A stretch of DNA of 64,000 nt from a virus. The stretch is taken from IMG/VR virus record IMGVR_UViG_3300045988_076381. The stretch is one strand, 5' to 3'. The notes beneath the pieces were generated by a model, which searched no databases, had not been told where the DNA came from, and worked only from the letters and a program-made list of their open reading frames with translations. Made by a program: the position numbers and the translations under genes. Shown in pieces: positions 249-50,761 of the stretch; the stretch's first letter is position 1; each line of letters opens with the position of its first letter.

Positions 249-537
249 CTGTTATCATAAAGACTTTTTATTCTTTATTTCCTGGAGTTTCCTCCTTACT
301 ATATTTAGATTTAATCATCTAAAGGATCGGCGCACGTTTTTATCTCATATTTAAATAAGATATTCCGAACTCATGGGAAGATTATTACTCTCTTAACGTT
401 CACTTCCTGCGCTCTACGATAATTAATTGATATTTAATCATCTCGGCATTAACATAGTTTATATTTAAACCTTAGTCTTTACCGATATTTCGGAATTTAT
501 TACCCTTAAATTACTTTAAGGGAGGCCCGGTATTTTA
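249..537 (-). mobile_element. ORF-less group-I-like intron in the terL Walker A codons
   Basis: About 289 nt with no ORF splits ...LVLKGRGL / SGFSEM.... The 5' exon ends in U and can pair (GGGCU/GGCCU with G.U) about 8-10 nt into the insert. The 3' end (aaaaagtctttatgataacag) matches the shared tail of the other introns here. Internal blocks resemble cgtaacgcgtag / ccaagagtg / gtacgctgaac. Confidence 0.6.
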
Positions 538-1346
538 AGCCCACGTCCCTTTAAAACAAGAGCATCTTTATTTGTTTTCCTACATAATTCCAGATAATGA
601 AAATATTCATATTGTTTTGCTAGAAACATTGGAAAAGATGTAGCACGTTTACCTTTTTTTGTTCCTCCTGTATCTAATATAATCGGAGTTTGCATTCGAT
701 AGAAATTTAAATAAAAATAATTCCATCCAGTTATAGTATACCCATGTGAAGTATAGCCCTCAGTACATCTTCTGAATCTCTCATCCCAGAAATTATTATA
801 TGCAGGACCTTTATAAGCATACATCTCATACTTCCCTGTAGCTTCTTTAGTCATTGCATCTTCTCTGAACCAATCAGGATTAAAATCTAATCCTTGTGTT
901 TCTGTTATAGGTCTATACCCAGTAAGTTCATACGAAAGTTCGGGATCAAAGAAATCTACTGGATCTCCTATTTTAACATCCCAATCAGTAAATGCTTCTG
1001 ATTGTTCTAGAGCTTTAGTCTTTAATTTACTATATAAATAATCATCTATTTCAACTTCATCTCTAGCAATTTTATAGTTAGATAAATCTTTAGATATATA
1101 AGAATTATCATATAATTTCTGCTCTTCCGATTCCTCTTCTTTTAACTTTTCGGGGGTATCATAGGTACTAAGATCTCTTACTATTGTTTCAGTATCTAAA
1201 GAATTTAAAAGTTCCTTTGTAGTAGGTTTCTTTTTTACAACTCTTTTAGGTTTTTCTGGTTCGGAATCTACTTTTTTAGGAATATCTTTCTTTGCCTTTA
1301 CTTTAGATACATTACCTTTTGCTCCATATGTAATTTTCCTAGCCAT
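538..1346 (-). CDS. terL: terminase large subunit-like ATPase, exon 1
   Basis: The ORF 516..1346 ends ...KDALVLKGRGLKIPGLP*. The last residues and the stop codon lie inside the predicted intron. The terminase call rests on the P-loop context and position only. Confidence 0.55.
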
Positions 1347-1348
1347 AT

Positions 1349-1930
1349 TTAATCTCTATATCCAGGTTCATAATCCCCTTTTATTTTAGATTGTTTTTCT
1401 ATATCTCTCTTATATCTATCCTCTGCTGCCCTAACTTCATCCAGAAGAGGGCCTATTCCTTTAGCTTCTGCGATTACGTCTTTAGCTTTATATCTTAATT
1501 GTCCTGTTTCATCATTTACATCACTTAAATCAACTAAGTCATTAAAATATATCGTTAATTTATCTATTACAGTATATACGGATTTAAGTAATTTATATGT
1601 TCTAAAAGAATCTCTTAATTCCTCATATTTCCTACAAGCTGCTCTAAATAAAGGATCAGAAAATTCTTCATCTGTTATAGCTGCTTGCCTTCTTGCTTCT
1701 TTATTCCTATTTTGTTCTGGGAAATCATATATAGGAGATTGCCAATCTAACATTAAATAAATATATTTAAATTCCCTAAACGCTCGTAATTTAAACCTTC
1801 CAGCAGGATCTTCTGGACATTTATTTCTCTCAGACTCCATTAAATCATTAAATTCTTTAAGTAATAGAATCTCCTCCTTATTTAATTCTAAGGATCCGGT
1901 TTGATTATTATAATTAAAAAACTTTACCAT
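1349..1930 (-). CDS. hypothetical protein (immediately upstream of terL)
   Basis: 193-aa ORF with a 2-nt gap to terL. No motif recognised. A small-terminase role would be a guess from position alone. Confidence 0.65.
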   Translation of the reverse strand: MVKFFNYNNQTGSLELNKEEILLLKEFNDLMESERNKCPEDPAGRFKLRAFREFKYIYLMLDWQSPIYDFPEQNRNKEARRQAAITDEEFSDPLFRAACRKYEELRDSFRTYKLLKSVYTVIDKLTIYFNDLVDLSDVNDETGQLRYKAKDVIAEAKGIGPLLDEVRAAEDRYKRDIEKQSKIKGDYEPGYRD

Positions 1931-1997
1931 AGTACATATCCATATTTAGCAAGAAAGAGTGATATAAATAAGGAGATTACTTATATCACTCTTCATA

Positions 1998-2225
1998 TCA
2001 TACCTTTTCTAAATCTTTAGTCGAGAATACTCCTTCGCACATATCTCGATTAGAATTAAACCATACACACCTCATTCCAAGAAATGAAATTTCATTTTCT
2101 GATGAATCTACAACTTTTTCCACTATAAGCATTTTAGGCTTAAATGGCATATCGTGTTTTAATTGAACCAAATCTCCTGGTTTTAGAAATATTTTAGGTT
2201 CTTGATATTTAAGACAATTCTTCAT
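1998..2225 (-). CDS. hypothetical protein
   Basis: 75-aa ORF that overlaps the upstream gene by 17 nt. Confidence 0.55.
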   Translation of the reverse strand: MKNCLKYQEPKIFLKPGDLVQLKHDMPFKPKMLIVEKVVDSSENEISFLGMRCVWFNSNRDMCEGVFSTKDLEKV

Positions 2226-2748
2226 GGTTATTAATTTTCTTAGAACTACAAGCTAATACATTTTGCTCTTGAATAATCCATAAAACAGTATCTCCAGTTC
2301 CGTCAGTATCAATTGGGAGATCTCTTTCACTATTAGCTATATACATTATATCCATTCCCGGGGTAACTGTTTTACAATCGGGACCTACATCTATTACACT
2401 ACCTACAGAAATAAAGCGTTCATTCCAAATATCTATATCTTCTCCAGAACGAGGATCATGTTTAACGTCCCGTTTTAATATAATTCCTCCCTTAGATTTA
2501 GGGTTTTCATAAGGACTAGCAGGATATTTAGAGAAGATTAAATAAGTTCCCATTGGTTTAATTTCCCAATTATTTACTTTATCCTCAAAAAACTCTACTT
2601 GTTTCTGGAGTTCTTCGTCAGAGACATTTTTTATTTTCTCATCGATTCCTATCGATTTAAGAGCTTTGTCAGTATTTAATTCTGACCTAACATTCTCCGG
2701 AACATATAATCCGGAATAATCATTTTTCATTACTTTTCCCATATACAT
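2209..2748 (-). CDS. hypothetical protein (weak GroES/co-chaperonin-like pattern)
   Basis: 179 aa. The segment KGGIILKRD....GSVIDVGP....PGMDIMY loosely resembles the GroES GGI.L...G.V.AVG...GD.V pattern. Confidence 0.4.
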   Translation of the reverse strand: MYMGKVMKNDYSGLYVPENVRSELNTDKALKSIGIDEKIKNVSDEELQKQVEFFEDKVNNWEIKPMGTYLIFSKYPASPYENPKSKGGIILKRDVKHDPRSGEDIDIWNERFISVGSVIDVGPDCKTVTPGMDIMYIANSERDLPIDTDGTGDTVLWIIQEQNVLACSSKKINNHEELS

Positions 2749-2768
2749 TTAAATTTAACATAAAACAT

Positions 2769-3035
2769 TTACCATTTATTTAATACACAATGATTATTTT
2801 TATTTCTTGTCTTTGCCATTAGTCTACATCCACATCCTTTAACCCATCCAACCATTTCTACATTAGATACCTGACCAGTACGAGGATTTATCCATAATTT
2901 AGGATCACAATAGCCTCCATATTTTTCTGAATATAAAGGACATTCTTTACATATCTCCAATCTTTTTAAATATAATTTTTCATTTATATTTAAAAATTCC
3001 TTTGCGTGTCCTGATAATATATCTTTAATACTCAT
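2769..3035 (-). CDS. small Cys-rich (zinc-binding-like) protein
   Basis: 88 aa containing CKEC...C...GCGC...HC. Confidence 0.55.
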   Translation of the reverse strand: MSIKDILSGHAKEFLNINEKLYLKRLEICKECPLYSEKYGGYCDPKLWINPRTGQVSNVEMVGWVKGCGCRLMAKTRNKNNHCVLNKW

Positions 3036-3040
3036 GATAT

Positions 3041-5020
3041 TTAAAATATTATAGGTTTATTTTCTTCTTCATATTTCCGGAGAATTAACTGCTTTTTATA
3101 GTATTTAAGCATCTTCTCTATATCAGATTTTAAATATTCTAGAACATACTCATTAACTTCACCATCGTGAGTAAAGTGAACAATTCTTAGCTCATCAATA
3201 ATTAAATCCGGATTTTGTTTTTGAAGCATCCATGCGTAAAGAGATAATTGAAGAGTATAATGTAAGAAGTTACAATCCATTATATTATTTAAAGGGTATT
3301 TCATCATTTGATACTTCTTCTTTTTAGGATCAAAATAGGATTTTTGTTTTAATTTCTTATTAGTATTATGTGTTGGAATCATAGAATATCCAAACAAAAA
3401 AGTATGAGAAGGACTATCTACTTCAATACATTGTGTTGGAATAGTATCTACTTTTTCTACAGATTTAATATTTCTATAATGATTCTTAGACCCATTAGAT
3501 AATTCAATATTTTGATTTCTAGTTAAAAAAGGGTTTAAATCATTACTAGAAAAACAAATATCATATCCTAGAAAAATTTTACCATCACACTTCTTTTTTA
3601 CATTAAATATTGTTCCTTTTAAACCTAAACTAGATATTAATTTAATTGTATCGTCTGCTTGCCATCTTTGAGTAGTTGACATTACAAATCTTCTCCTTTC
3701 TTTATGATAGTATCCGTCAGTATCCATCAGTCCTCTAAGAAGATCTAATCGTTGTTCAAATGAAGCCCTCAGATATATATCAGGAATATGTTTATATTCT
3801 AATACTCCTAATTGTTTTAGCTTTGTACGTAAACCATAAATTGTTTTACATTCTACATTAGCTCTATCTGGATTATGTTGAGCATTTTCTCCTATATCAT
3901 ATCCTCTAGATTTAATTTCTTCCCATAATGGAGAATCTTTTCTTTGAGTAATTAGTCCACATGATTTTGAACCGTCACCAAGCCAACAACCTAATACATA
4001 TGGATCTATAGGTAAATCTGCTTTTGGGAGATTTAAAGGTTTAGCATTAAGTATTTTTGGAAGTTCTTCTGATTTAATTTTTATTCTTTTTTCTTTTCTA
4101 TTATTTATATCTTCTAATAGATAATGTAATTCCTCAGTTGTCATTACTTTATTTGTATATTTTTTGTTTTTTAAGAAGGATATAAACCAACGATGTTCGT
4201 GATCTGCTATAATACTTTCAGAATTATCAAAAGTTATTTTATAACAAGGATTATAATGTATTTCAGATTTATGTACTACTTTAGTTATATTTCCATCCTT
4301 ATCAAAAATTTCTTCTCCTTCTTTAATATCCTTTATAGTTGTCCATCCAGATTTAGTTGCAATTGGCGTGTCTAAAGGTAATCCTTTCCAGTCCCATACT
4401 TTGATATGATTTCCATTTTTAATAATTAAATCAGATTGTCCAGCAATACGTAACATTCCTTCTGGATCTATATAAGAAATTAACATTTCCGGTATAATTC
4501 CTGTATCTATATCTAAATTATGATGATTTTTATATACAGGAATAGTTCCTCCTAAATTAAATCTCTTAATCATTTTCTCAGCATGATTATAAAATCCAGT
4601 TTCTTGTTCTGCATGTATCTCAGTACCATACTCACAAGCTATCCTATTTGTTTCTCCCCAATCTTTTACATATTTATTACAAGTCTCTTCAAATACTTCT
4701 TTTGTAATACTATCTGGAATATAAGAATCATCCCATTTTTTAGTATTTAATAAAGAACTCTTTACATTAATAAAATCATTTCCCATTAACTCTTCTAACG
4801 CCTTATACTTCTTCCAAAAATCTGAATCAAACTTATTCTCGAACTCTCCAATTAAAGTAGTTACAGAAATAAATTTTTTTCCTTCACCTACTCCCTTTTT
4901 ACCTACATACACATGTTTCTCATCATTGTATGTAACATCATCGTTTTCCTTATCGACGATTAAATCATTACCATCGAAGGAGAAGTATTTAACATCTCCT
5001 TCATTCATACTCATAGTCAT
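3041..5020 (-). CDS. PD-(D/E)XK (RecB/Cas4-like) nuclease precursor containing an intein
   Basis: Extein motifs are GTEIHAEQE, SDLII..., VWDWK|...|TNKK (D-x-K-T) and HYTLQLSLYAWML (QxxxY). A 340-aa insert follows the catalytic Lys. Confidence 0.75.
   Translation of the reverse strand: MTMSMNEGDVKYFSFDGNDLIVDKENDDVTYNDEKHVYVGKKGVGEGKKFISVTTLIGEFENKFDSDFWKKYKALEELMGNDFINVKSSLLNTKKWDDSYIPDSITKEVFEETCNKYVKDWGETNRIACEYGTEIHAEQETGFYNHAEKMIKRFNLGGTIPVYKNHHNLDIDTGIIPEMLISYIDPEGMLRIAGQSDLIIKNGNHIKVWDWKGLPLDTPIATKSGWTTIKDIKEGEEIFDKDGNITKVVHKSEIHYNPCYKITFDNSESIIADHEHRWFISFLKNKKYTNKVMTTEELHYLLEDINNRKEKRIKIKSEELPKILNAKPLNLPKADLPIDPYVLGCWLGDGSKSCGLITQRKDSPLWEEIKSRGYDIGENAQHNPDRANVECKTIYGLRTKLKQLGVLEYKHIPDIYLRASFEQRLDLLRGLMDTDGYYHKERRRFVMSTTQRWQADDTIKLISSLGLKGTIFNVKKKCDGKIFLGYDICFSSNDLNPFLTRNQNIELSNGSKNHYRNIKSVEKVDTIPTQCIEVDSPSHTFLFGYSMIPTHNTNKKLKQKSYFDPKKKKYQMMKYPLNNIMDCNFLHYTLQLSLYAWMLQKQNPDLIIDELRIVHFTHDGEVNEYVLEYLKSDIEKMLKYYKKQLILRKYEEENKPIIF
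3365..4384 (-). mobile_element. intein (class-3-like) with LAGLIDADG homing endonuclease domain
   Basis: The N-terminus GLPLDTPIAT matches block A but has Gly in place of Cys1. Block B is IIADHEHRW (Trp at B12). LAGLIDADG motifs are LGCWLGDGS and LLRGLMDTDGYY. Block F is QCIEVDSPSHTFLF (Cys at F4). Block G is IPTHN|T (Thr at G5). Confidence 0.8.
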
Positions 5021-5032
5021 AATATATAAATT

Positions 5033-5743
5033 TTAATTTCCTTTCACTATAGCTAAATCTATTATAGCTCTTGCACAAGTTGTTGTATAATAAAACATTT
5101 GATCATGCGAAAGTGGGGATTCTTTTGAATAACTTATTCCAATAAATCCTCTGGGAGTTCCATCAATTTCTATTAAATAAAGAAATAATTGTTTAGCTCC
5201 ATTCTTTTTTAACATTGTATATAAAATCGGATCTGATTCTTTAATATTCTCTATATCTAATAGATTATATACTTTCTTTTCGTTAAGTTCTACATTAAAT
5301 CTAAAATTATCAGTACTTTGTTGTTGATATTGCTGTTTAATTCCCGCTACTCCAGAAGCATTTTGTTCATTCCTCATTGTGAAGTATGTAAAAAGATTTC
5401 CGCTTAATGAAGTTAAACTATTACCATATTCACAGAAAAATACCCTATCAGCTTTAAGAGTTTGTTGAAGTTTACGTAATTCATTATCTATTTTAGGGGG
5501 AATAGTTAGTGCGGTATTTACTAATTCCGTATGTTTCTCAGATCTCTCTTTCTCTCTTTGATTGAATACATTACTTATTTCAATTCTAACAGTTTCCTTT
5601 ATCGTTTCGTTTAAATATCTTTCTACATAGTTAGAAAAATATAAAGTACATAGTACAATAACTACACAAAGTACCAATTTAGAATCTTTTATAATTTTAG
5701 ATTTAATCAAACTATTTATGAGGGGTAGAATTTTGTCTATCAT
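5033..5743 (-). CDS. hypothetical membrane-anchored protein
   Basis: 236 aa with an N-terminal hydrophobic segment (LVLCVVIVLCTLYF). Confidence 0.6.
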   Translation of the reverse strand: MIDKILPLINSLIKSKIIKDSKLVLCVVIVLCTLYFSNYVERYLNETIKETVRIEISNVFNQREKERSEKHTELVNTALTIPPKIDNELRKLQQTLKADRVFFCEYGNSLTSLSGNLFTYFTMRNEQNASGVAGIKQQYQQQSTDNFRFNVELNEKKVYNLLDIENIKESDPILYTMLKKNGAKQLFLYLIEIDGTPRGFIGISYSKESPLSHDQMFYYTTTCARAIIDLAIVKGN

Positions 5744-5787
5744 TTAACTTATTTTCTATTTTTAATACACACTTATTTTGAATAGTG

Positions 5788-5795
5788 CAAATATA
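5788..5795 (-). promoter_or_regulatory. Bacteroidota-type -7 box TAtaTTTG
   Basis: The reverse complement reads tatatttg. It lies about 45 nt upstream of the 5743 start. Confidence 0.4.
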
Positions 5796-5881
5796 TTAAT
5801 AACTTGCAGTCAAAACAAGATTTATATATTTAAATTTAAAAATATAAGAAATAATATGTTTAACGCGTTAAATTATAGAGT

Positions 5882-6196
5882 ATGAAATTTAATCTTAGTA
5901 AAATAGACTTTAGTCTATTAAAAGTTCCAGATTTGGATTTAGAGGAATTTAATAATGTTATAGAGAAGTATTTAGGTAAAGAATCTGCGGAATTTCTTAA
6001 AAAGGGCGGGAAAATTTATATTAAGAAAAAGAATCGTGGAAAATTTACAGAGTCTGCTAAAAGAGCTGGACAATCTGTTCAAGAACATGCTAGATCAGTA
6101 TTAAATGATCCAAATGCTACACCTCTACAAAGGAAAAGAGCTAACTTTGCACGTAATTCTGCTAAATGGAAACATAAAGGAAAAAAGAAGAAGTAG
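5882..6196 (+). CDS. hypothetical basic protein
   Basis: 104 aa with a Lys-rich tail. It ends in TAG. Confidence 0.55.
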   Translation: MKFNLSKIDFSLLKVPDLDLEEFNNVIEKYLGKESAEFLKKGGKIYIKKKNRGKFTESAKRAGQSVQEHARSVLNDPNATPLQRKRANFARNSAKWKHKGKKKK

Positions 6197-6532
6197 GATT
6201 TATATATAATCTTATATTTAAATGATATCTAATACTTCCAATAGCAAAATCCCACCCCTTCCTGTCTGGGCGATATTATTTAAATCTTCTTCCAAACCAG
6301 AACTCTTTCTACTAATTCTCAAGAAATTCAATATTTTACATCTAAAGAATCCGTATATAAAGAAATGATTCAATCTAATCCAAAATTTGATGCTGAAGTT
6401 GATTTGGATAATATAAAACGAAGGGTTCTTTCATAAGAATTTAATAAAGAGTAGGAATATTATATATAATAAACCTTCAGGAATAATGTCTAATATTATA
6501 TAATAATATAAAAACAAGTAATATATAAATAA

Positions 6533-7308: not shown

Positions 7309-7938
7309 CTACTTGCTTATATTTTCAATCATCTCCTTAATAAAATTAAGGGATTTAAGATAATCGTCATTTGTTATATATTCTATATCAGAACTTTTTA
7401 ACATTTCCTTTACCATCTCTCCGAAATTAGAAAATAACTCATTTATATCAGGACTAGTACATTTAACCTGATCTATCGGTAATTTATTACTAGCTATAGG
7501 TGCTCCGATAGTAATCCCAACTTTAGCATAATCTGGAATTTTATCTAAATCAGGATTATTTAATTTATTTTCTAACTCATCTAAAGAATCTTCTTCTTCG
7601 TTAGGAATTTTATTTAAAGTTCTATCTAATTTCTCATCGATAAGATTTAACGATGTCTCTATATCAATTCCATCATAGTCTTCTTCTCTATGGAAGTTAT
7701 CTAACTTAGATAATATCACTTTAAGTCTATCCTCAATCATATCAAAATAATCAGAGAAGCTCTTATTCATTTCTAATAGTTCTCTTAAATTCTTTTTATT
7801 CTCACAATCTCCTTCATTAAAATACTGAATAATTTGAACTAATTTCTCAATTCCGATTTTAGCATTATTCATTACATCCATCATAGAAGCATTTATACAT
7901 TCTAACTCCTTATCACTAATAAGTTTTTCCATAATCAT
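7309..7938 (-). CDS. hypothetical acidic protein
   Basis: 209-aa ORF only. Confidence 0.6.
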   Translation of the reverse strand: MIMEKLISDKELECINASMMDVMNNAKIGIEKLVQIIQYFNEGDCENKKNLRELLEMNKSFSDYFDMIEDRLKVILSKLDNFHREEDYDGIDIETSLNLIDEKLDRTLNKIPNEEEDSLDELENKLNNPDLDKIPDYAKVGITIGAPIASNKLPIDQVKCTSPDINELFSNFGEMVKEMLKSSDIEYITNDDYLKSLNFIKEMIENISK

Positions 7939-7957
7939 ATTTTTAATTTAACATATA

Positions 7958-7965
7958 CAAATATA
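7958..7965 (-). promoter_or_regulatory. -7 box TAtaTTTG
   Basis: The reverse complement reads tatatttg. It lies about 20 nt upstream of the 7938 start. Confidence 0.4.
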
Positions 7966-8005
7966 CTAAGATTATAGATCTAATCCTAAGATTAAATGTT
8001 AAATT

Positions 8006-8245
8006 TTATAAATTAAGATTTTTTCTTAATTCCGGAATAATATTATTCAAATCCTTCTTCACAGCCCCTTGTCTATCTAAATACGATAGTTCTGGATATT
8101 TAATCTTTCCAAATTCATCTATAAACTCTATTGAATCCTGAGATTTAAATTCAGGATCTGATATTATTATTGTTTTTATTTTATTTAAGTTATTCATTAC
8201 ATAACTATACATCACTAATACATTTTGCATTATATTACCGTCCAT
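8006..8245 (-). CDS. hypothetical protein
   Basis: 79-aa ORF only. Confidence 0.5.
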   Translation of the reverse strand: MDGNIMQNVLVMYSYVMNNLNKIKTIIISDPEFKSQDSIEFIDEFGKIKYPELSYLDRQGAVKKDLNNIIPELRKNLNL

Positions 8246-10799: not shown

Positions 10800-11828
10800 T
10801 TATATTAAATCTATATTATTTAAGTTATTATATATATTCACAATCCTTTCCTTAAATTCTTTAATAGATAAATTACTCTTCATTACATTAATCTTATCCT
10901 CACAAATAACAATATTTCCTTTTATATATCCTTTATTAGAATCTATCCTATCCACAGAAGGTCTATAATCTTTTGAAAACGGGATTCCAGAATAATAACA
11001 TTTCCCCTCTTGTGCTTTGTACATCTCATTTAAATATTCTTCTGTAATATCCAATTCCTTTTTTATATTATTTTTATTACTATAATTATATTTTCTATAC
11101 TCACAATTTCTTTTACATTTATCTAATAACCACTTTCCTATATTTTCCCATTTCTTTTCTTCCTCTTCATCTCGTGCACACTTACTACATAAGAAATTTC
11201 TATGCTTATCAAATTTAGAAGGATCTGTTTCTCCACATTTTATACATAATTTATCAGAGTGTTTATATATAACCCTTTCTTCAGTATTCTCACCTTTTAA
11301 TAATTTAGAATTAACTTGATATCCTTTAGGTGTTTTTAAAAGAGTGTACTTAGGATGTGAGATTTTTAAAGTTATATCTTTTGTATTCTTAAGTATTCCA
11401 AATAAACCTTCTGTATTAAATTCTTTTAATCTTCTTGTAATATTATAAATAGTTCCAATAACACAATCTATATTATTATCATCTAAAATTCGTTTTAATT
11501 CTCTAGCTGGAATTTTATCATATGATGGTAGAATGTTATAAAACATTAGAATGAAAGCTTTGTTGTTTAATGTTAGATCTGGATTAGTTAAAAAATCTGG
11601 ACAAGATAATGATGTATGAATTTTAAATCTTGGAGCGAAGCCATTGCTGGAACAATCTTCAATATCTCCAGATGAAATTAAATGTTTTGTGGATACTTTT
11701 ATTACTTCATCACTTATACCGTAAGTAGATAATTGGGAAGATAAAATACTTGCAATTTCGTCTTCTTCTTTAAATGCATTAAGGATTCTTAATACTACTT
11801 CTAATTTAAAATTTTCAATTGTTTTCAT
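10800..11828 (-). CDS. free-standing HNH-type endonuclease-like protein
   Basis: The C-terminus reads EGKCYYSGIPFS...SVDRIDSNKGYIKGNIVICEDKINVMKSN (HNH-like). Zinc-ribbon CxxC pairs occur at CIKCG...CSKC. Confidence 0.55.
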   Translation of the reverse strand: MKTIENFKLEVVLRILNAFKEEDEIASILSSQLSTYGISDEVIKVSTKHLISSGDIEDCSSNGFAPRFKIHTSLSCPDFLTNPDLTLNNKAFILMFYNILPSYDKIPARELKRILDDNNIDCVIGTIYNITRRLKEFNTEGLFGILKNTKDITLKISHPKYTLLKTPKGYQVNSKLLKGENTEERVIYKHSDKLCIKCGETDPSKFDKHRNFLCSKCARDEEEEKKWENIGKWLLDKCKRNCEYRKYNYSNKNNIKKELDITEEYLNEMYKAQEGKCYYSGIPFSKDYRPSVDRIDSNKGYIKGNIVICEDKINVMKSNLSIKEFKERIVNIYNNLNNIDLI

Positions 11829-13628: not shown

Positions 13629-13701
13629 GGTCCCATAGCGTAAAGGTTAACGCAAAACACTCATAATGTTGAGATTCTAGGTTCAAGTCCTAGTGGGACC
13701 A
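13629..13701 (+). tRNA. trnM: tRNA, anticodon CAT (Met / fMet / Ile2 not distinguished)
   Basis: Hand-folded cloverleaf. Acceptor ggtccca/tgggacc, D stem gcgt/acgc, anticodon loop cTCATAa, T arm ctagg-ttcaagt-cctag. Confidence 0.8.
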
Positions 13702-13824
13702 CGATATTGATTTTCAGGATTTCTGAGGTTTAGAATTTCTGGATTAATGTTTTTTGTAATTTTTTTCATGATCAGTGTTTAACATTAGCAACATTTAATG
13801 AGATGTGATATCTCCTTCCTTATT

Positions 13825-13849
13825 AAGGAGAGTTAATACTCTCCTTTTT
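13825..13849 (+). terminator. stem-loop terminator
   Basis: aaggagag-ttaata-ctctcctt followed by ttt. Confidence 0.55.
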
Positions 13850-13965
13850 AAATTTGTTTATTATGAGAAAGATAGATATAAAATACATAATGACAATAAT
13901 AGGAATATTTATATTTCTATTATTATTATCTTCATTAGAATCAATCATTAATTCTATTTAAATAA

Positions 13966-14039
13966 GAGCGAATATCCAAATTGGTTAAGGGAATAGTCTG
14001 CAAAACTATATTGTGAGAGTTCGAATCTCTCTTCGCTCT
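13966..14039 (+). tRNA. trnC: tRNA-Cys (GCA)
   Basis: Acceptor gagcgaa/ttcgctc, anticodon arm atagt-ctGCAaa-actat, T arm gagag-ttcgaat-ctctc. Confidence 0.8.
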
Positions 14040-14156
14040 CATTAAATATTATATTTAAAAGGTTATATTCGGAAATATATAAGAATGATATCTTTTAAAT
14101 ACTTTAAAATTATATTAATTAAAATAAATAAAAATAATCTTTTAAATATAATAATT

Positions 14157-14426
14157 ATGAAGATCGTGATTAATAGATCCGGAATTGGATTAAATCTATC
14201 TCTACCAGCTATAGAGTATTTAATTAAATATAAAGTAATTAAGTCTCCATTAGATATGAGAAATATTAATAGGAGTAGCCCAAGATTGGTAAGATGTATC
14301 GAAGTATTAGGAGATAACGCATCTTTAGATATGTTAGAAACGATAACAGTTAGAGATGATTTTAAATATAAAATCTCTGAAATCCAAATAGGTAACATCC
14401 ATAGAGAAATTATCCTCATGGAGTAA
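14157..14426 (+). CDS. hypothetical protein embedded in the tRNA cluster
   Basis: ORF 14085..14426. The internal start MKIVINRSGIGLN... at 14157 is more plausible. Confidence 0.45.
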   Translation: MKIVINRSGIGLNLSLPAIEYLIKYKVIKSPLDMRNINRSSPRLVRCIEVLGDNASLDMLETITVRDDFKYKISEIQIGNIHREIILME

Positions 14427-14594
14427 GATATTTACATATGTAAATCTAATTAGTGTACAATAATTAGATATTCCAAGCTCTACTGGTTACAGAGTATAAA
14501 TAAACCTAGATTTTTAGATTTCCAAATTGACCTAAAATCTAATATCTTAGGATTAGATATAAAATAAGCGTGGAATACTTATTGTTAAATCAAC

Positions 14595-14664
14595 TTCTTA
14601 GTAGTTTAACTGGTGAAAATGTCATATACAGTAGGAAATATTAGTTCGAATCCAATCTAAGAAG
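14595..14664 (+). tRNA. aberrant tRNA-like sequence (anticodon arm not foldable)
   Basis: It has a 7-bp acceptor ttcttag/ctaagaa, a D arm gttt/aaat and a T arm attag-ttcgaat-ccaat. I could not form a 5-bp anticodon stem. Confidence 0.3.
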
Positions 14665-14824
14665 TGATAAAGAAACTCATATAATTCATATCTTAATATT
14701 AACCCGAAAAAAGGGCAACAGTAGGGTTGGGGTGGGTTCAGTGCCCTTGAGATAGTATCAAAATCAGCAATAATGCAGATGAGCTGTAACCACCCCTTTT
14801 ATTAATAATTTTGTTTATATTCTA

Positions 14825-14896
14825 TGCGAGATAGTGTAAAGGTAACATCCTAGGCTCATAACCTAGAGGATGGTGGTTCGAATCCATCTCTCGCTA
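14825..14896 (+). tRNA. trnM: tRNA, anticodon CAT (second copy, 1:72 mismatch)
   Basis: Acceptor tgcgaga/tctcgct with a T:T mismatch at 1:72, anticodon arm ctagg-ctCATaa-cctag, T arm ggtgg-ttcgaat-ccatc. Confidence 0.75.
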
Positions 14897-15132
14897 CTAT
14901 ATAATAGACTTCAGATATTTAACGCGGAATATAGAAGTTTGTTATATTTTATAATTATGCATGCTAATTATAAATCCCAACTCATCCTATGTCTAAGGGG
15001 AGTATAAATTAAAAGCAGATCCATCTTTTTGAGTTTGTATTGGTAATGAGAATAACTCTATAACTTAGAAATGTTATAAAACTTTCTTGAATTTAAGATA
15101 TAAGGTTTGGGAACTTACATCATTAAATTAAC

Positions 15133-15207
15133 TCCTCAGTAGCTCAGTTGGCTAGAGCAGCGGACCGTTAATCCGTAGGATCGTAGGTTCAAGTCCTACC
15201 TGAGGAG
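15133..15207 (+). tRNA. trnN: tRNA-Asn (GTT)
   Basis: Acceptor tcctcag/ctgagga, D arm gctc/gagc, anticodon arm gcgga-ccGTTaa-tccgt, T arm gtagg-ttcaagt-cctac. C at position 33 and a 6-nt variable loop are atypical. Confidence 0.7.
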
Positions 15208-15651
15208 CATAATAAAGAGTGTAGTACTAGTGTAGGACTCAACGTAACTTATAGGTTTTGTATTGTACATATAAATTTAGTCCTATTGGGTGTCGTATAA
15301 CCCAACTTAGCTATCGAGTACGGTTAATGATAGCATTTTTATCGAACTTTCATAAAAATAATTATATGAGAAACAAGCATTATTTCCTAATAGATTAATC
15401 TGATAAACCGTATATTGGAGTTGATACACTTATAATTGTCTAATGCAGCTTCGTATTATAAGAAGCAAGTCAATATAAGAAATCAGTTCAGAATAATGTA
15501 TTGTATTCGACGTGGGATTTAAAATTGTATTTATGTGATAGATGTATAGAGAGAAGATTAAGACGGAAAATATCTGGAGAAGATCTAATTCCAAATGATC
15601 CTGTTAATAATTTATATATACAAATATGTCTAGATTTATAATTTATTAATT

Positions 15652-16035
15652 ATGAAAAAGAGAGAACTCCCAAAAGAAGTAAAGAGATGGATTAAATTTT
15701 TTATAAAAACTAATGCTTATTATAATTTTGATTGGGCATTTATGTTAGATGTAGAAAAAGAGAAATTAACTCAATGTATTAAATTTTTTACTGATAACGG
15801 ATGTCATATTAATAATTCCAGAATAATTTCGAAGATGCAATTGGCTGTGAGATTATTAGATATTGCTAGGGATGAGGATTTAGATTTTAAAGGTTATGTA
15901 AATACTAAGAATATAAATAGATTTATTTCTATAGATAAATATGATATTGATATTCTCCCAACTCTTCGAACTGAAAAAGCGTGGTATTTATATAATAAAT
16001 TAAGATATTATTATATGAAAGAATGGTGGGATTAA
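15652..16035 (+). CDS. hypothetical protein
   Basis: 127-aa ORF between tRNA genes. Confidence 0.55.
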   Translation: MKKRELPKEVKRWIKFFIKTNAYYNFDWAFMLDVEKEKLTQCIKFFTDNGCHINNSRIISKMQLAVRLLDIARDEDLDFKGYVNTKNINRFISIDKYDIDILPTLRTEKAWYLYNKLRYYYMKEWWD

Positions 16036-16044
16036 ATATATTAT

Positions 16045-16130
16045 GCTAGAATGGTGAAATTGACAGACACTCAGGACTTAAAATTCTGTGGATAGTAATA
16101 TCCGTGTGGGTTTGAATCCCACTTCTAGTA
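16045..16130 (+). tRNA. trnL: tRNA-Leu (TAA), type II with long variable arm
   Basis: Acceptor gctagaa/ttctagt, anticodon arm cagga-ctTAAaa-ttctg, variable arm tggatagtaatatccgt, T arm gtggg-tttgaat-cccac. Confidence 0.8.
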
Positions 16131-16422
16131 CTATCTAGATGTAGCAAAATCAGTGAAGTTAAATACAGAAATACGCTTCGTAAGAGAACCTGTAGTCCTT
16201 AAAGGATAGTGGTGACACTGAGCCAATCTATTTATATAGAAGGTGAGATTCCAAAAACTACAATATTTATAGGGAATCAATCATATAAGAAATTATATGA
16301 AATCTCTGATAATCTATAGTGCCTTATAGAAAAACAGGGGATGAAGTTAAGGCACAAACTTCATTGGGATATATTCCCGGCGAAAGAGATTTTATATATC
16401 TCTGGATCTGATTATTTAATAG

Positions 16423-16485
16423 TACTTTGTGCATCGGATGCACTCCGAGGGATGTGAGGTTAAGGTTCGACTCCTTACAAAGTGC
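16423..16485 (+). tRNA. truncated tRNA-like element (acceptor + T arm only)
   Basis: Acceptor tactttg/caaagtg and T arm taagg-ttcgact-cctta. It is only about 63 nt. The interior holds the palindrome tgcatc-g-gatgca and has no anticodon arm. Confidence 0.25.
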
Positions 16486-16515
16486 CTAAGTAGTAATTAT
16501 TTAAATATTCATATT

Positions 16516-17415
16516 ATGGAAATTAGAAATGAGAATAAAGTATTTTTTGGAGAGAGTGGTATTACTTCTACTTCTGCTACATATTTATGTAACATTGCTA
16601 GGGAGTTATTAAAAGATATAGAATCATCTTTAAATAATATCTCCTTCATTACTGAGGAAGTAACACTCTTTGGATCTGAGAATAAGATTAGAACTAAAGA
16701 AGGATATAATTTATCCGAACTATCTGATCTAGATTCTAAACTTACTAAAGCTGCACAACTAAAAGCATTTATAGCATGGATGAGTGAAGGAATCAAAGCA
16801 AAAGATGTGGAAAGTGAGAAACTTAGAGAATATACTTTATCTGATTTTATAAAGGATTTCCCTGAATATGTAGTACAGAGGTCTAAAGATTCTACACTAG
16901 ATCCTAATTATGGACTTGGGAAATTAGATGTTTCAGAACGGGTTAAATATCTCTTCTCAGAAGCTTTAACTTCTTCAATTGGGAAATATATTCATAATAA
17001 TGGTGCTTTAAGAAAAGCTTATAGCGAGCTTTTAAATATTGCACATAACAAAGTGAATATAACCACAGAAGCAAAAGATTCTATAGTTGTAGTCACTAAT
17101 AAAATCCCAAGTGTGGATACTAAAAAAGTAGAAAAGATTATGCTTAAATATCAAGATTTACGAAGAGAGAATGAGAAGGTTCTGAACTCTTTGAAATCTA
17201 AGATAAAAAGTTATGATCATGAATATCAAATATATCTTACTCTTGAAGATAAAGCAGCTTCAGAGTCGTATAATGAAAAGATGGAAGTAGTACGTTCAAA
17301 ATATAATGAATATGTATTAAATAAGAGATCGGAAATTGAGAAACTTAAAATCATCATCCCAGATGGTTTAAGGAGTATTTATAACGATCTTCATACCATC
17401 TCAAAAGAAAAATAA
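16516..17415 (+). CDS. hypothetical coiled-coil-rich protein
   Basis: ORF 16429..17415 trimmed to MEIRNENKV..., because its first 29 codons overlap the tRNA-like element. Confidence 0.6.
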   Translation: MEIRNENKVFFGESGITSTSATYLCNIARELLKDIESSLNNISFITEEVTLFGSENKIRTKEGYNLSELSDLDSKLTKAAQLKAFIAWMSEGIKAKDVESEKLREYTLSDFIKDFPEYVVQRSKDSTLDPNYGLGKLDVSERVKYLFSEALTSSIGKYIHNNGALRKAYSELLNIAHNKVNITTEAKDSIVVVTNKIPSVDTKKVEKIMLKYQDLRRENEKVLNSLKSKIKSYDHEYQIYLTLEDKAASESYNEKMEVVRSKYNEYVLNKRSEIEKLKIIIPDGLRSIYNDLHTISKEK

Positions 17416-17693
17416 ATAAAGTAGGTAATACTTAAATCCATTTGGATGGAGGTATTTTTATATGTATAGATTATATATATAATAAAATTTAGCTAAATAA
17501 TATAGACGATAATATAAACTATTAATGCGAAAGAATCCTCAAAAGATGTTTTTATTTAAATAAATATACTTATTTAAATATAAACTATACTCCTCTTTCT
17601 GTCTTAACCTTAGTCCTTGAGAGGATTCTTGCCCTTGACATATTCTTTGGCTGTATTTATATAATCTATACATAACTATTTTTAATAAACATT

Positions 17694-17764
17694 TGTCCTA
17701 TAGTATAATGGTAATACATCTGGTTTTGGTCCAGAGAATTGAGGTTCAAATCCTCGTAGGACAA
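17694..17764 (+). tRNA. trnQ: tRNA-Gln (TTG)
   Basis: Acceptor tgtccta/taggaca, D arm gtat/atac, anticodon arm tctgg-ttTTGgt-ccaga, T arm tgagg-ttcaaat-cctcg. Confidence 0.8.
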
Positions 17765-18147
17765 CAATTCTATAATGGGAATTTTTAGATTGATTATTTC
17801 TTATAGAAAAGTCTGGACAAATTTTGTTTGGACTTTTCTTTTCATTCAATAGATATTGAAAAATTCGAAAACATATGATAAATTCTCCAAATAGTTATTT
17901 AACTGAATATTATATAAATAAAGTTTTGTTTATATAACTCTTTAAAAGACTGTAAAATATTAAAATTTCAAAACTAAACGGATTCTATGGCTTATAAGTA
18001 GAATACCCCTTTCTGTCTATTTTATCAAGCCTAGATACTCTAAAACTATTTTTAAGTCAACTTCCAGATATGGTATGTTTGGACTATTATAGATTTTTGG
18101 AGTTCTAGGCTTTTTTATTTTCATTTTTCAAACTCGGATTTTCAAGT

Positions 18148-28006: not shown

Positions 28007-28177
28007 TAGAATAAAATATACCCAAGAGTGATCTACTCCTACAGGTAATGCTGAGGATGAAAATGTACGCTGAACCGTCTGATGATTAAATCAGAATATC
28101 TTTATTTACATCTTCAATAAAGTAAGGAGGAGACTCCCGGAAGTAAGAGATAAAAAACTCTTACGATAACAAAATTG

Positions 28178-30547: not shown

Positions 30548-31669
30548 ATGAAAACATGTAAATATTGTGGATGTGATATATCCCACCTAAGAGCTAATGC
30601 TACCACTTGTGGATCGAGAGAATGTATAAATGCGTATAGAAGAGAACGTAAATCCAAACCTAAGGAGCCAAGAACTTGCGAAATTTGTGGAACGTCTATA
30701 GACGATCTTCCTGGACAAAGGAGAATTTGTAAAAATCCAGAATGTGAAGCGGAGCAAAAAAGAAGAAAATATGCACAGGCCTTAAAAGAAAAAATATGTA
30801 AAAAATGTGGAGATACTTTCCTTGGCACTTCTAAACAAACCTGTTGTGAAAACTGTAGAAAACATAAAGATATAACATTTAAAGTTATAGAACAGAAAGT
30901 AGTTTGTGAAGATTGTGGAGCCTTACTAAGGACCGAAAGTAAAAAAGTTAATGGAAAAACTAAGGAGATTATAGCAAAAGGAATGTGTGATGATTGTAAA
31001 CAAAAACATAGAGAGAAACTTAGTTTACAAATGAAAGAACATAATCCTATGTTTGATCCTGAGATAGTTAAAAAAACTTCGGAGACAAGACGATATAAGT
31101 ATCTACAAAAATGTGAAGAAGAAGAAAGGCTTCCTTATGTAAGAAAAGGATGTAAAGGTGAAACTAGGGAAGAAATGATTCAAAGAATGAAAGAACACAA
31201 TCCTATGTTTGATCCTGAAACTAGAGCAAAGGTCAGCAAAACTCTTAAAGAAAAAATTTTATCTGGAGAAATTATTTATGCTAAAGGTCCAGAACATCAT
31301 TTGTGGAAAGGTAATAGAAATTTTAATAAGGCAGTACGTATAGAATTAAGAAAATGGGTTAAAGAACAAATGGAAAAGGTTCATTATATATGCCAAAAAT
31401 GTGGGAAAACACGCACCGAATTACATGTACACCATTTACATCCATTAAGGGATATAATTTTGGATACTTTAAATAAAAATAATTTAACTATCATAGATAT
31501 AAATAGTATGGAGGGTTCAGAACAATATTTTGATATAATTAAACAAATAATTGAATATCATTATCAACATAATGATATCGGAATTGTTGTTTGTCCCCAA
31601 TGTCATAATGAACTAGATAGTTATTATAAAAGAAAAACTCATGAAAATAGTAAGTATAAAGAAAGTTAA
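30548..31669 (+). CDS. free-standing HNH homing endonuclease with zinc ribbons and NUMOD3-like repeats
   Basis: At least four CxxC...CxxC ribbons. MKEHNPMFDPE occurs twice (NUMOD3-like). The HNH core is HVHHLHPLRDI...VCPQCHNELD. The gene lies between the two intein halves. Confidence 0.75.
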   Translation: MKTCKYCGCDISHLRANATTCGSRECINAYRRERKSKPKEPRTCEICGTSIDDLPGQRRICKNPECEAEQKRRKYAQALKEKICKKCGDTFLGTSKQTCCENCRKHKDITFKVIEQKVVCEDCGALLRTESKKVNGKTKEIIAKGMCDDCKQKHREKLSLQMKEHNPMFDPEIVKKTSETRRYKYLQKCEEEERLPYVRKGCKGETREEMIQRMKEHNPMFDPETRAKVSKTLKEKILSGEIIYAKGPEHHLWKGNRNFNKAVRIELRKWVKEQMEKVHYICQKCGKTRTELHVHHLHPLRDIILDTLNKNNLTIIDINSMEGSEQYFDIIKQIIEYHYQHNDIGIVVCPQCHNELDSYYKRKTHENSKYKES

Positions 31670-48080: not shown

Positions 48081-48393
48081 AAATTAAGTGCCCCTATTTA
48101 ATACAAATAAATAGAAAACCATTTGAATTGCTAGGAACTCGCGAAGATTTAGTAACTAAAACATCAGAAGAAATTCTAAATGTAAATGTTAAAAATACTA
48201 AATTATGTGATAATTAGCAGCTAAGCTCCTAAGGATGTAATCTATGGAGAAAGTTCAACGACTATCTCGAAAGAGAGTAGGGCTAAGTAGCTCGAAGCGG
48301 ATGGTATAATATTTTAATATTATAATGAAATAGTCTAATCTTACACGAAAGTGTAAGAGTATATATGGAAACGATATATACGTAATATAATTG
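48081..48393 (+). mobile_element. ORF-less intron (group-I-like, different scaffold) in the helicase Walker A
   Basis: 313 nt with no ORF. The 5' exon ends gggT, which can pair with Gccc 9 nt downstream. The insert ends ...ataattG. Removing it restores ADSG-AGKSS. Confidence 0.65.
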
Positions 48394-49374
48394 GCAGGTA
48401 AGAGTTCTGTGGCCATATTCATGTATATCTATAAACCTTTAGTTTATTCCTTAGAACATCCAGAGATACCTGTAAATATTCTCGCATTAAGCTTTGAAAT
48501 GTCAAAAGAAGTACTTCTCGCTAAACTTCTCTCTCTTTATATCCTTGATAAATATCATATTGATATTAGTTATTCTGAAATATTCTCATTAGATAAACCT
48601 GTTTCAAACGATAAACTTAAATACATCTACGATGCTAGGGATTGGTTAACTAAAGTAGATGATAAATTAACCATCTACGATACTCCTTTAAATTCCACTG
48701 GAGTATATAATATCCTCAGAGCATGGGCTGGATATTTTGGGAAGTTTGAAACAGACGATAATGGTGAGAGGTATATAAAGAATGATAGAAATCAATATTT
48801 AATAGCAGTATTAGACCATTGTAAGTTATTAAAGAATAATGGTTCCGGAATTAAGCATGAAATAGATGAAACAGCTAAACATTTTATTTATTACCGTAAT
48901 CTGTGTGATATGACAATATGCGCTGTTCAACAAGCTAATAGACAATTTAAATCTATGGATAGAAGAAATTCCGAACATAATTATCTCGAATTACAAGATG
49001 CTCAGGATACTGCGGACATGACACAAGCATCAGAAATTGTTATTGGTGTCTATCATCCATTCAGAGAGAAGAAGGCTAAGTGTGAAGGGTTTGATATTAA
49101 GAAATTACGAGATAACTTTAGGTTGATCCAATTGCTTAAAGGACGATTTGGACAGTCTGATGTTGTTGAGGGTTGTATTTTCCAAGGAAGTATAGGATAT
49201 TTTAAAGAATTAGATCCTCCCGAAGATGGAAAGAGATTTGATTACGGTAGAGTTCTGAGAATGGATTATTTATTCGAAGAATTTGATAATCAACAAAAGA
49301 AAAAAGAAGAGTTAGATAGAGTTATTAAAGAAGATGAAGAAGATGAAGTACTTGAATTTAATTTTAATGTATAA
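48394..49374 (+). CDS. DnaB-like replicative helicase, exon 2
   Basis: AGKSSVAIF..., LIAVLDHCKLL (Walker B), AVQQANRQ (H3-like), LLKGRFG. Confidence 0.7.
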   Translation, partial: AGKSSVAIFMYIYKPLVYSLEHPEIPVNILALSFEMSKEVLLAKLLSLYILDKYHIDISYSEIFSLDKPVSNDKLKYIYDARDWLTKVDDKLTIYDTPLNSTGVYNILRAWAGYFGKFETDDNGERYIKNDRNQYLIAVLDHCKLLKNNGSGIKHEIDETAKHFIYYRNLCDMTICAVQQANRQFKSMDRRNSEHNYLELQDAQDTADMTQASEIVIGVYHPFREKKAKCEGFDIKKLRDNFRLIQLLKGRFGQSDVVEGCIFQGSIGYFKELDPPEDGKRFDYGRVLRMDYLFEEFDNQQKKKEELDRVIKEDEEDEVLEFNFNV

Positions 49375-49537: not shown

Positions 49538-50761
49538 ATGAAGAATAAAATTTTACAACTAAGTAAGAATTGTAATAGTCTAGAAATAGCTAGAATACTA
49601 TCATTATCTCTAAATGAAGTAGAAAAAGTTTTAATTGATGAATATTTTCAAAAGAAATGGAAGATATCTAAAAAGGATCTTGAAGAATTAGCTGCAAGAA
49701 TCTATAATGAATCTCCAACTCTACTATCAGATGAATTTAATATATCAGAAGTAACATTAAAAAAATATTTAGCAGATTGCAAATTGTTTAATACTAAGAA
49801 AAATGTTATCTATGTTCAAAAATCAGAGGAAGAAATTGAAAAATTAGTTCCGGATATAGTTTTAGATTATAATAACCAATTATCTATTGCACAATTAATG
49901 GTTAAATATAAGTTATCTAAAGATAAAGTTAAAGAAATTTTACATAATAATGAAATTTCAACCGGAAAAGTGACCTGTAATGAACATATATTTGATATAA
50001 TTGATTCGGAAGAAAAGGCATATTGGCTAGGGTTCCTATATGCAGATGGAGCAGTGGGGAGTGCTGATAATACTATTGAATTAGCATTAAAACTTTTGGA
50101 TTGTAAACATCTATATAAATTCAAAACTTTTATAGAAGCCAAAAGGGATATAAAAATAGAAACTAGTAAAGTTAAAAGATGCAGATTCTCTGTAAGTAGT
50201 AAACATTTAAAGTCACAACTTATTAAATTAGGTTGTACTCCTCAAAAGTCCTTAACTCTTAAATTTCCAACTAAAGAACAAGTTCCAGATGACTATATCA
50301 TTCCATTTATAAGAGGGTATTATGATGGAGATGGAATATTAACATATAGTTGTTCTACCACTGGTAGAACAGTTTTAGCTACTGGTATGTTGGGAACTGA
50401 AAATTTTTTAACTGGAGTTTTAAGTAAGTTTAAGTATCCATTACATTCTATTTTGCGTTTAGCTAGTTTGGAAGGATCAAGCGAATGTAAACAAGTAAAT
50501 TGGTCAAAAACTGATTCTGAGGAGTTTTTAAATACTATTTACAAAGATGCTACAATTTTTTTGGATAGAAAATATTTACGATACAAATATTTTAAAGACA
50601 ATGGATTTGCCGTCCAAAAAAGTAATTTTTTGGATAATGACAGAGCAATATCGGAAGAGTCTAAACAATGGATTAATCAGTATTTTAGTATAGATATTGA
50701 TTCCTTATTGCATGATAATTCCGAGATAAATATAGAAAGTAACGATTCTATATCATCGTAA
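49538..50761 (+). CDS. intron-encoded double-motif LAGLIDADG homing endonuclease
   Basis: The motifs are KAYWLGFLYADGAVG and FIRGYYDGDGIL, with N-terminal HTH-like repeats. The stop codon TAA lies within the ribozyme block tcgTAAcgcgtag. Confidence 0.8.
   Translation: MKNKILQLSKNCNSLEIARILSLSLNEVEKVLIDEYFQKKWKISKKDLEELAARIYNESPTLLSDEFNISEVTLKKYLADCKLFNTKKNVIYVQKSEEEIEKLVPDIVLDYNNQLSIAQLMVKYKLSKDKVKEILHNNEISTGKVTCNEHIFDIIDSEEKAYWLGFLYADGAVGSADNTIELALKLLDCKHLYKFKTFIEAKRDIKIETSKVKRCRFSVSSKHLKSQLIKLGCTPQKSLTLKFPTKEQVPDDYIIPFIRGYYDGDGILTYSCSTTGRTVLATGMLGTENFLTGVLSKFKYPLHSILRLASLEGSSECKQVNWSKTDSEEFLNTIYKDATIFLDRKYLRYKYFKDNGFAVQKSNFLDNDRAISEESKQWINQYFSIDIDSLLHDNSEINIESNDSISS

Follow-up and report, generated by a model that had tools for sequence, protein, structure and literature searches.

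Class 3 inteins are defined by a non-nucleophilic residue 1 that covaries with a Trp-Cys-Thr (WCT) triplet and with Ser or Thr at position +1 (PMC2807308). [quoted passage not shown] For the founding member, the 341-aa DnaB intein of mycobacteriophage Bethlehem, the mechanism was established by mutagenesis (PMC2807308). Phage nucleases also host such elements: 40 inteins in RecB-like exonucleases of cluster C1 mycobacteriophages lie in the PD-(D/E)XK motif and were grouped with class 3 (PMC5050341), and a survey of actinophage Cas4 exonucleases lists 138 class 3 LAGLIDADG inteins, located at RecB motif III, 'EFKT' (bioRxiv 10.1101/2025.01.02.630785). The tested prototype of the nuclease inteins, in Catera gp206, was shown to splice efficiently (PMC3196547). 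Here we describe a 340-aa insert in a nuclease gene of IMG/VR virus record IMGVR_UViG_3300045988_076381, of which a stretch of 64,000 nt (the window) was analyzed. The gene occupies positions 3041..5020 and the insert positions 3365..4384, both on the minus strand. We conclude that the insert is very probably a full-length class 3 intein that carries its own homing endonuclease and resides in a phage PD-(D/E)XK nuclease. The gene is thus to be read as a nuclease plus an intein, rather than as a 659-aa hypothetical protein.

The precursor, taken from the list of open reading frames (ORFs), comprises 659 codons and a stop. All features of this gene given below lie on the minus strand. The insert corresponds to residues 213-552, and the remainder of the product is 319 aa long. 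Translation of 3365-4384 gives 340 codons in frame, Gly1 to Asn340 in intein numbering, reading GLPLDTPIAT...ADHEHRW...TQCIEVDSPSHTF...IPTHN and then Thr. Searching with the spliced extein, we found an intein-less 319-aa allele, P0121, in public metagenomes (a cluster of 365 members). This allele is identical to the in silico spliced product at 317/319 residues and aligns with it gap-free across ...KVWDWKTNKKLKQ... (...KVWDWK-TNKKLKQ...). The DNA of its contig, L004, is 98-99% identical to window positions 541-5817, minus a clean 1020 bp at the intein site, where it reads TGGGACTGGAAG|ACTAATAAGAAA (bar, insertion point). The junctions are DWK|G...THN|T, with Lys as residue -1, Gly as residue 1, and Thr as residue +1. 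Because the residues at the two borders differ (K/N and G/T), only excision of Gly213-Asn552 regenerates the empty allele. A Cys, Ser, or Thr nucleophile is absent at the true N-terminal junction, and the insertion site immediately follows the RecB motif III catalytic Lys (D210-W-K212|T). The initial annotation, which had been made from the sequence letters, had located this insert and its diagnostic residues exactly to the base, and its proposal that the N-terminal nucleophile is missing is now anchored by the gap-free empty allele. It had also named the alignment that would speak against it, one placing a Cys or Ser at the true N-terminal junction; when that alignment was run with the empty allele, residue 1 was Gly.

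The residues that define class 3 could be assigned to each splicing block. Block A (GLPLDTPIATKSG, 4346..4384) starts at Gly1, which is not Cys, Ser, or Thr, and aligns with ALALDTPLPTPSG of Msm DnaBi1. Block B (SESIIADHEHRWFI, 4181..4222) contains His64 (B:10) and, two residues past it, Trp66 (B:12, the W of WCT); H64-R-W66 lies over the HQW of the DnaB intein structures 6BS8 and 6RIX. In block F (PTQCIEVDSPSHTFLF, 3392..3439), Cys319 (F:4) is predicted to be the nucleophile that initiates splicing and the point at which the block F thioester branches, and it lies over the catalytic Cys118 of DnaBi1 and Cys124 of MchDnaB1 (PMC6195587, PMC7664689). Block G together with residue +1 (SMIPTHN|T, 3362..3385) supplies T338-H339-N340|T, that is, Thr338 (G:5), His339, Asn340, and the Thr+1 of the C-extein. 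A further Cys, Cys47 (4244..4246), is the counterpart of Cys48 of M. smegmatis DnaBi1 (alignment NPCYKI / RPCYVV). In the intein family alignment, H64 and W66 are invariant and Cys47 is at least 90% conserved. The WCT signature that had been read from the sequence is therefore upheld: Trp66, Cys319, and Thr338 fall on the WCT columns of 6BS8 and 6RIX and are conserved in the family.

A phmmer search of all PDB chains returned the class 3 DnaB inteins 6BS8, 6RIX, and 6RIY as its sole strong matches (E 6e-20 to 3e-19), whereas the best class 1 entry, the mini-intein gp41-1, reached E 0.037, ~18 orders of magnitude weaker. Each splicing half, N-terminal and C-terminal, gives its own match to the class 3 DnaB inteins, and the columns for W, C, T, H, H, N, and Thr+1 coincide (DnaB intein/this intein: ALALDTP/GLPLDTP, ADAQHQW/ADHEHRW, VRCVEVDNPEH/TQCIEVDSPSH, VPTHN/IPTHN). 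This match is far beyond chance. Class 3 is reported to be monophyletic, and relatedness to it is seen also in related genome loci, where the W and C are present at 80/80. The mycobacterial DnaB mini-inteins, DnaBi1 (6BS8) and M. chimaera MchDnaB1 (6RIX/6RIY), are the closest solved structures by both sequence and HINT fold. Blocks A, B, F, and G are conserved between them and the present intein, including the Trp, the catalytic Cys, the THN, and the second Cys (Cys48/Cys47), but the mini-inteins have no endonuclease, follow the P-loop Lys of DnaB (GK|A...THN|S), begin with Ala1, and precede Ser+1. The Bethlehem DnaB intein is like the present one in having an endonuclease, a non-nucleophilic residue 1, the WCT triplet, and Thr+1; it differs in its Pro1, its helicase extein, and its insertion site.

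An AlphaFold model of the intein (pLDDT 96.8, pTM 0.93, built on 64 homologues) shows a HINT splicing domain into which a LAGLIDADG homing endonuclease domain is inserted. In Foldseek searches, the full-length model matched PI-SceI (E 3e-20, TM-score normalized to the query 0.74), TliVMA, and PI-PfuI, and the HINT part matched 6BS8 and 6RIX with TM-scores normalized to the target of 0.80-0.87. Although PI-SceI/VMA-type class 1 inteins have the same two-domain architecture, they use a Cys1 nucleophile, lack the WCT triplet, and are ~16% identical in sequence to this intein. Class 2 (KlbA) inteins also lack an N-terminal nucleophile but are archaeal, have no WCT triplet, and use Cys+1 to attack the N-terminal junction directly (PMC2807308); no similarity of class 2 (KlbA) inteins to this intein was detectable.

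Both LAGLIDADG motifs recognized in the initial annotation are retained. Motif 1 (block C, IDPYVLGCWLGDGS, 3968..4009) ends in ..LGD137G and motif 2 (block E, LDLLRGLMDTDGYY, 3707..3748) in ..DTD223G, so that each has a terminal acid, Asp137 and Asp223 being the putative catalytic acids, and the modeled domain has a double-domain fold like that of PI-SceI, TliVMA, and PI-PfuI. In the family alignment, P128, Y129, G132, W134, and G138 of motif 1 and L216, G218, M220, D221, and G224 of motif 2 are invariant, and D137 and D223 are each at least 90% conserved. Pfam LAGLIDADG_3 scored 23.4 bits against a cut-off of 22.5, and Hom_end also matched; the Pfam Hint models were weak on the intein (Hint_2 E 0.14). 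A profile search found no second copy of the intein family in the window. At third codon positions, the GC content of the intein is 0.10, compared with 0.20-0.25 in the flanking extein parts, so the intein is more AT-biased than its host gene.

The exteins together form a RecB-family nuclease. The N-extein (aa 1-212, 4385..5020) carries at its C-terminal end motif II (GQSD197L) and motif III (D210-W-K212), with Lys212 as residue -1. The C-extein (107 aa and a stop, 3041..3364) opens with TNKK and contains the QxxxY motif of the RecB family as QLSLY (3236-3250). D197, D210, and K212 are invariant in an alignment of 49 intein-less homologues, as are Q251 and Y255 (intein-less protein numbering) in homologues, and a search with the spliced extein found more than 1600 homologues. 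The in silico spliced extein matches Pfam PDDEXK_1 (31.8 bits against a cut-off of 22, E 1.8e-7) and PHROG 298 'exonuclease' (E 6e-24). The AlphaFold model of the intein-less allele (pLDDT 92) has a restriction-endonuclease-like fold resembling Cas4 SSO0001, MGME1, and the AddAB/RecB nuclease domains. The four-Cys Fe-S cluster of Cas4 (one N-terminal Cys and a C-terminal CX2CX5C) was sought in the extein sequence, and the C-terminal Cys cluster is absent; the extein has three Cys residues in all (ETC114NK, IAC129EY, and MDC243NF, spliced-protein numbering). Because the four-Cys cluster is missing, the extein sequence is best called RecB/Cas4-like rather than Cas4 proper.

By homology to the experimentally dissected class 3 inteins, splicing would begin with attack of the Cys319 thiol (F:4), activated by His64 and Trp66, on the Lys212-Gly1 peptide bond to yield the block F branched thioester. 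Transesterification would then move the N-extein to the Thr+1 hydroxyl, cyclization of Asn340, aided by His339, would release the intein, and an O-to-N shift would restore the DWK-T motif. Gly1 would not take part in the chemistry as a nucleophile. With the catalytic Lys immediately before the insert, the nuclease should be active only once splicing has occurred. In DnaBi1, splicing requires Cys48, which pairs with the catalytic Cys in a disulfide under oxidative stress (PMC6195587). By analogy, and more speculatively, the conserved Cys47/Cys319 pair might make splicing redox-conditional here, which raises the idea of redox-conditional activation of a phage nuclease. At the DNA level, the LAGLIDADG endonuclease would cut the empty allele (TGGGACTGGAAG|ACTAATAAGAAA) carried by a co-infecting phage, and recombinational repair would copy the intein and a short flank into the cut allele.

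To place this intein within a family, we used it as a query against the cluster representatives of a metagenome protein collection and obtained 945 matches at E ≤ 0.001. Conservation was counted in the best 120 of the 945. These proteins are 45-66% identical to the query, and all are nucleases of 560-595 aa with the intein at the nuclease site. Asp(-3), Lys(-1), and Gly1 are each present in 115/115; Cys(F:4) and Thr(G:5) are likewise without exception (118/118 and 117/117), Trp(B:12) is found in 118/119, Thr+1 in 116/118, and Thr-His-Asn in 117-118. The collection files the window's own 659-aa protein under a '90% identity' cluster (820 members) that is represented by an unrelated sequence, a 496-aa response-regulator/HD-domain protein ('bacterium TM462'). 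The apparent closest relative at only 66% identity is an artefact, because the exact match is hidden in this misassigned cluster.

A scan of GTDB with one genome per species yielded 459 related loci, in the best 79-80 of which residues were read. Trp and Cys are present in all 80 loci read and His in essentially all; the C terminus is THN at 76/79 loci and TCN at the other 3. Residue 1, in the best 79 loci with a readable N-terminal junction, is Ala in 39, Gly in 32, Pro in 4, Asp in 2, Met in 1, and Ser in 1. The Gly1 loci are D-x-K|...|T nuclease sites in 28/32 cases, in DNA of 23% to 73% GC, and the Ala1 inteins go with P-loop GK| sites. Variants of related class 3 inteins were noted at loci L015 and L016 (contigs of metagenome-assembled genomes, MAGs; ~68% GC), L024, L028, and L049.

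A tblastn search of GenBank phages recovered homologous inteins at the identical site, with 31-42% identity over the full length: Dexes gp69 (Mycobacterium phage, 'Cas4 exonuclease'; VVDYK|GLDLDTK...IPTHN|T), Frankenweenie gp79 (Streptomyces phage; VDWK|GLALDTP...), and Catera gp206 with many Bixzunavirus relatives (ELK|SLACSTP...VPTHN|T). The actinophage Cas4/RecB-like exonuclease inteins, which include that of ScoobyDoobyDoo, resemble the present one in their insertion after the Lys of D/E-x-K|T, in the WCT triplet, in THN|T, and in their LAGLIDADG endonuclease. Gly1 is shared with Dexes and Frankenweenie, whereas Catera gp206 has Ser1. Unlike the actinophage systems, the present intein belongs to an uncultured human-gut phage of 27% GC and ~160 kb, and its extein is divergent and RecB-like and lacks the C-terminal Cys cluster of the Cas4 homologues. 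Gly1, by these alignments, is the ordinary start of the nuclease-site lineage rather than a peculiarity of this copy. The literature searched, both for Gly1 class 3 inteins and for class 3 inteins of gut phages, yielded nothing specific. We lean, by a little, toward a wider proposal that Gly1 class 3 inteins at the D-x-K|T site form a phylum-spanning lineage that is abundant in human-gut phages, and that invasion of this ~160 kb phage species is ongoing.

The initial annotation had suggested that the intein may still be mobile, and filled and empty alleles do coexist in natural populations. In the cluster table, 41 contigs carry the exact 659-aa protein (85 collection blocks in the contig index) and 85 contigs an intein-less allele, P0257 (170 collection blocks). 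Both are found on contigs of 157-165 kb with identical gene neighborhoods, and sample names suggest that the source is human-gut cohort metagenomes. Examples of gut metagenomes with this phage are ERZ27261350, ERZ28508863, ERZ1310036, and ERR11478388. Filled and empty alleles thus coexist in one phage species. We compared 11 filled and 11 empty genomes whose loci had been retrieved by exact protein identity. Over 3683 bp of flanking DNA, the mean number of pairwise differences was the same within each class (filled, 30.1; empty, 29.6) as across the two (33.0). Flank haplotypes are intermixed between the classes, with, for example, one divergent downstream block found in filled and empty genomes alike. 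The third base of the -1 Lys codon, a synonymous position, separates the classes completely: AAA (11/11 filled alleles) versus AAG (11/11 empty alleles). A second difference, Asp versus Asn at 157 nt into the C-extein, likewise follows the intein, an association partly forced by the way the loci were retrieved. This pattern is consistent with homing into a recombining population, in which a short tract is co-converted, and the synonymous marker linked to the junction points to recent homing.

Several considerations weigh against these interpretations. The class 3 mechanism is assigned solely from sequence, fold, and homology. The filled/empty polymorphism could stem in part from ordinary recombination between strains rather than from ongoing homing. 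Endonuclease activity is likewise deduced, and the allele pattern is no proof of present-day activity. An argument for a recent sweep from low nucleotide diversity of the intein was withdrawn; retrieval by exact protein identity suppresses variation within the gene. The evidence for mobility is accordingly restricted to haplotype mixing outside the gene and to the synonymous -1 marker.

We also considered whether the insert is a decaying, splicing-dead relic that has knocked out a nuclease whose loss the phage tolerates, which seems to us improbable. Inactive class 3-like inteins are known, such as the Arthrobacter Arth_1007 pseudogene (PMC3196547), the nuclease may be dispensable, and splicing at this locus is predicted by analogy. 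Arth_1007, however, lacks His B:10 and Cys F:4 (PMC3196547), whereas the present intein keeps all the required residues (His64, Trp66, Cys319, Thr338, His339, Asn340, Thr+1, and Cys47), and the catalytic columns are invariant throughout the family. The 41 contigs with an identical 659-aa protein come from independent samples, and a dead intein after the catalytic Lys would cost the phage a protein whose conservation extends over more than 1600 homologues. The relic explanation concerns activity; a second alternative concerns class. If the junction had been misplaced, or if another nucleophile acted, the element might be a class 1 or class 2 intein that uses an N-terminal Ser or Cys, or direct attack by Thr+1 as in KlbA. 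The first reading of the sequence did come without an independent placement of the junction, and class 2 inteins likewise lack an N-terminal nucleophile. The empty allele, however, fixes Gly1 and Lys-1 unambiguously, known class 2 inteins rely on Cys+1 and are without a WCT triplet, and in the class 3 inteins tested, Ser or Thr at +1, or even Cys+1, was no substitute for Cys F:4 (PMC2807308, PMC5222942). With the E-value difference between the class 3 DnaB inteins and gp41-1 added to these points, we consider a class 1 or class 2 intein very unlikely.

Least credible in our view, with hardly any weight, is a domain insertion that is retained in the mature nuclease without splicing, either Hint-like or a LAGLIDADG DNA-binding module. 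LAGLIDADG folds are sometimes domesticated, as in WhiA, and the weak Pfam Hint scores fit such a module. Against this, the insert splits the D-x-K catalytic motif, ends in a canonical His-Asn|Thr C-terminal junction, is missing to the codon from alleles that are 99% identical, and is homologous end to end with the splicing-proven inteins Catera gp206 and DnaBi1. A class 3 intein with its own homing endonuclease remains the reading that we favor for the insert.

The initial annotation had ascribed the intein to an AT-rich, apparently Bacteroidota-type phage. The window is indeed AT-rich, at 27.5% GC, but the Bacteroidota assignment is unsupported, as the relatives are binned with low-GC Bacillota. 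A megablast search of window positions 1-25000 against 50,697 GenBank phages gave no match, and the DNA polymerase is at most ~34% identical to that of any cultured phage. At least seven syntenic, intein-bearing relatives are AT-rich contigs binned with low-GC Bacillota, namely Candidatus Coprovivens, Erysipelotrichaceae (a 161.5 kb contig), Intestinibacter, Acholeplasmataceae, Clostridium, and other Bacillota. They share the gene order nuclease with intein, DUF6171-like gene, GroES-like gene, and 75-aa gene. MAG binning thus points, weakly, away from a Bacteroidota host; binning of a phage contig is no proof of host.

The locus had further been presented as notable for being a rare case outside actinobacteria. 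The rarity is much reduced, given the published actinophage alleles at the same site (40, then 138) and the 945 metagenomic matches. Novelty is therefore modest: the kind of element, the site, and the predicted chemistry were already known, and what is new is the host lineage and the ecosystem. Nothing here overturns current understanding of class 3 inteins. Discussion of this mechanistically unusual class has so far centered on Actinobacteria and their phages; the findings extend its range to a low-GC, widespread lineage of human-gut phages, and they show RecB motif III to be a site at which Gly1-type class 3 inteins recur across phyla. What is most useful among the new findings is that a prevalent gut phage is naturally polymorphic for filled and empty alleles. 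Because filled and empty alleles are both common in public gut metagenomes, the locus could be used to track intein invasion and loss. If invasion is ongoing and the marker was co-converted, it would provide a natural system in which the dynamics of intein homing could be followed in the gut virome.

Other apparently selfish elements were seen in the window. At positions 249-540 (minus strand), a 292-nt insertion without an ORF lies in the gene for the terminase large subunit (TerL), after ...KGRG; the ORF at 516..1346 is the truncated 5′ part of this gene. The insertion is missing from the 98-99% identical contig L004. Across strains, TerL is called as 276, 428, or 760 aa, regardless of intein status. 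The borders of the insertion fit the rules for group I introns, in that the 5′ exon ends in U, the insert ends in G, and the frame is restored as KGRG-L-GFSE. Its RNA folds well (z = -4.0), and an Rfam search with the 292-nt insertion returned nothing, even at E ≤ 1. Related copies of this small element are present in the window at ~28106-28173, ~58168-58368, and ~61893-62137, and in L004 at 4739-4968 and 6037-6266, with 67-94% identity over 30-220 nt and the common 3′ end ...ATAAAAAG.CT.TA.GATAACA. In L004, TerL (428 + 355 aa) and portal (399 + 344 aa) are each split into two ORFs with gaps of ~230-256 nt. The TerL gap (4739-4968) and the gap past the 3′ ORF of TerL (6037-6266) belong to the small-element family, and the portal gap (7919-8173) showed no similarity to it. 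These observations suggest a family of short, unannotated, intron-like elements, some of which split packaging genes.

The window also contains four free-standing endonuclease genes (49538-50761, 57114-58193, 30548-31669, and 10800-11828), of which two belong to PHROG 4645, one is an HNH endonuclease, and one is endonuclease VII/HNH-like. The genome appears to be heavily colonized by selfish elements. Directly upstream of one endonuclease gene lies a DnaB-like helicase fragment (48391-49374) whose match to the profile is confined to the C-terminal part; it may represent a split gene. A tRNA cluster (13629-17765) at a switch of gene strand from minus to plus comprises two tRNAs for Met and one each for Cys, Asn, Leu, and Gln, together with a seventh, at 14595-14664, that was detected by Rfam alone.

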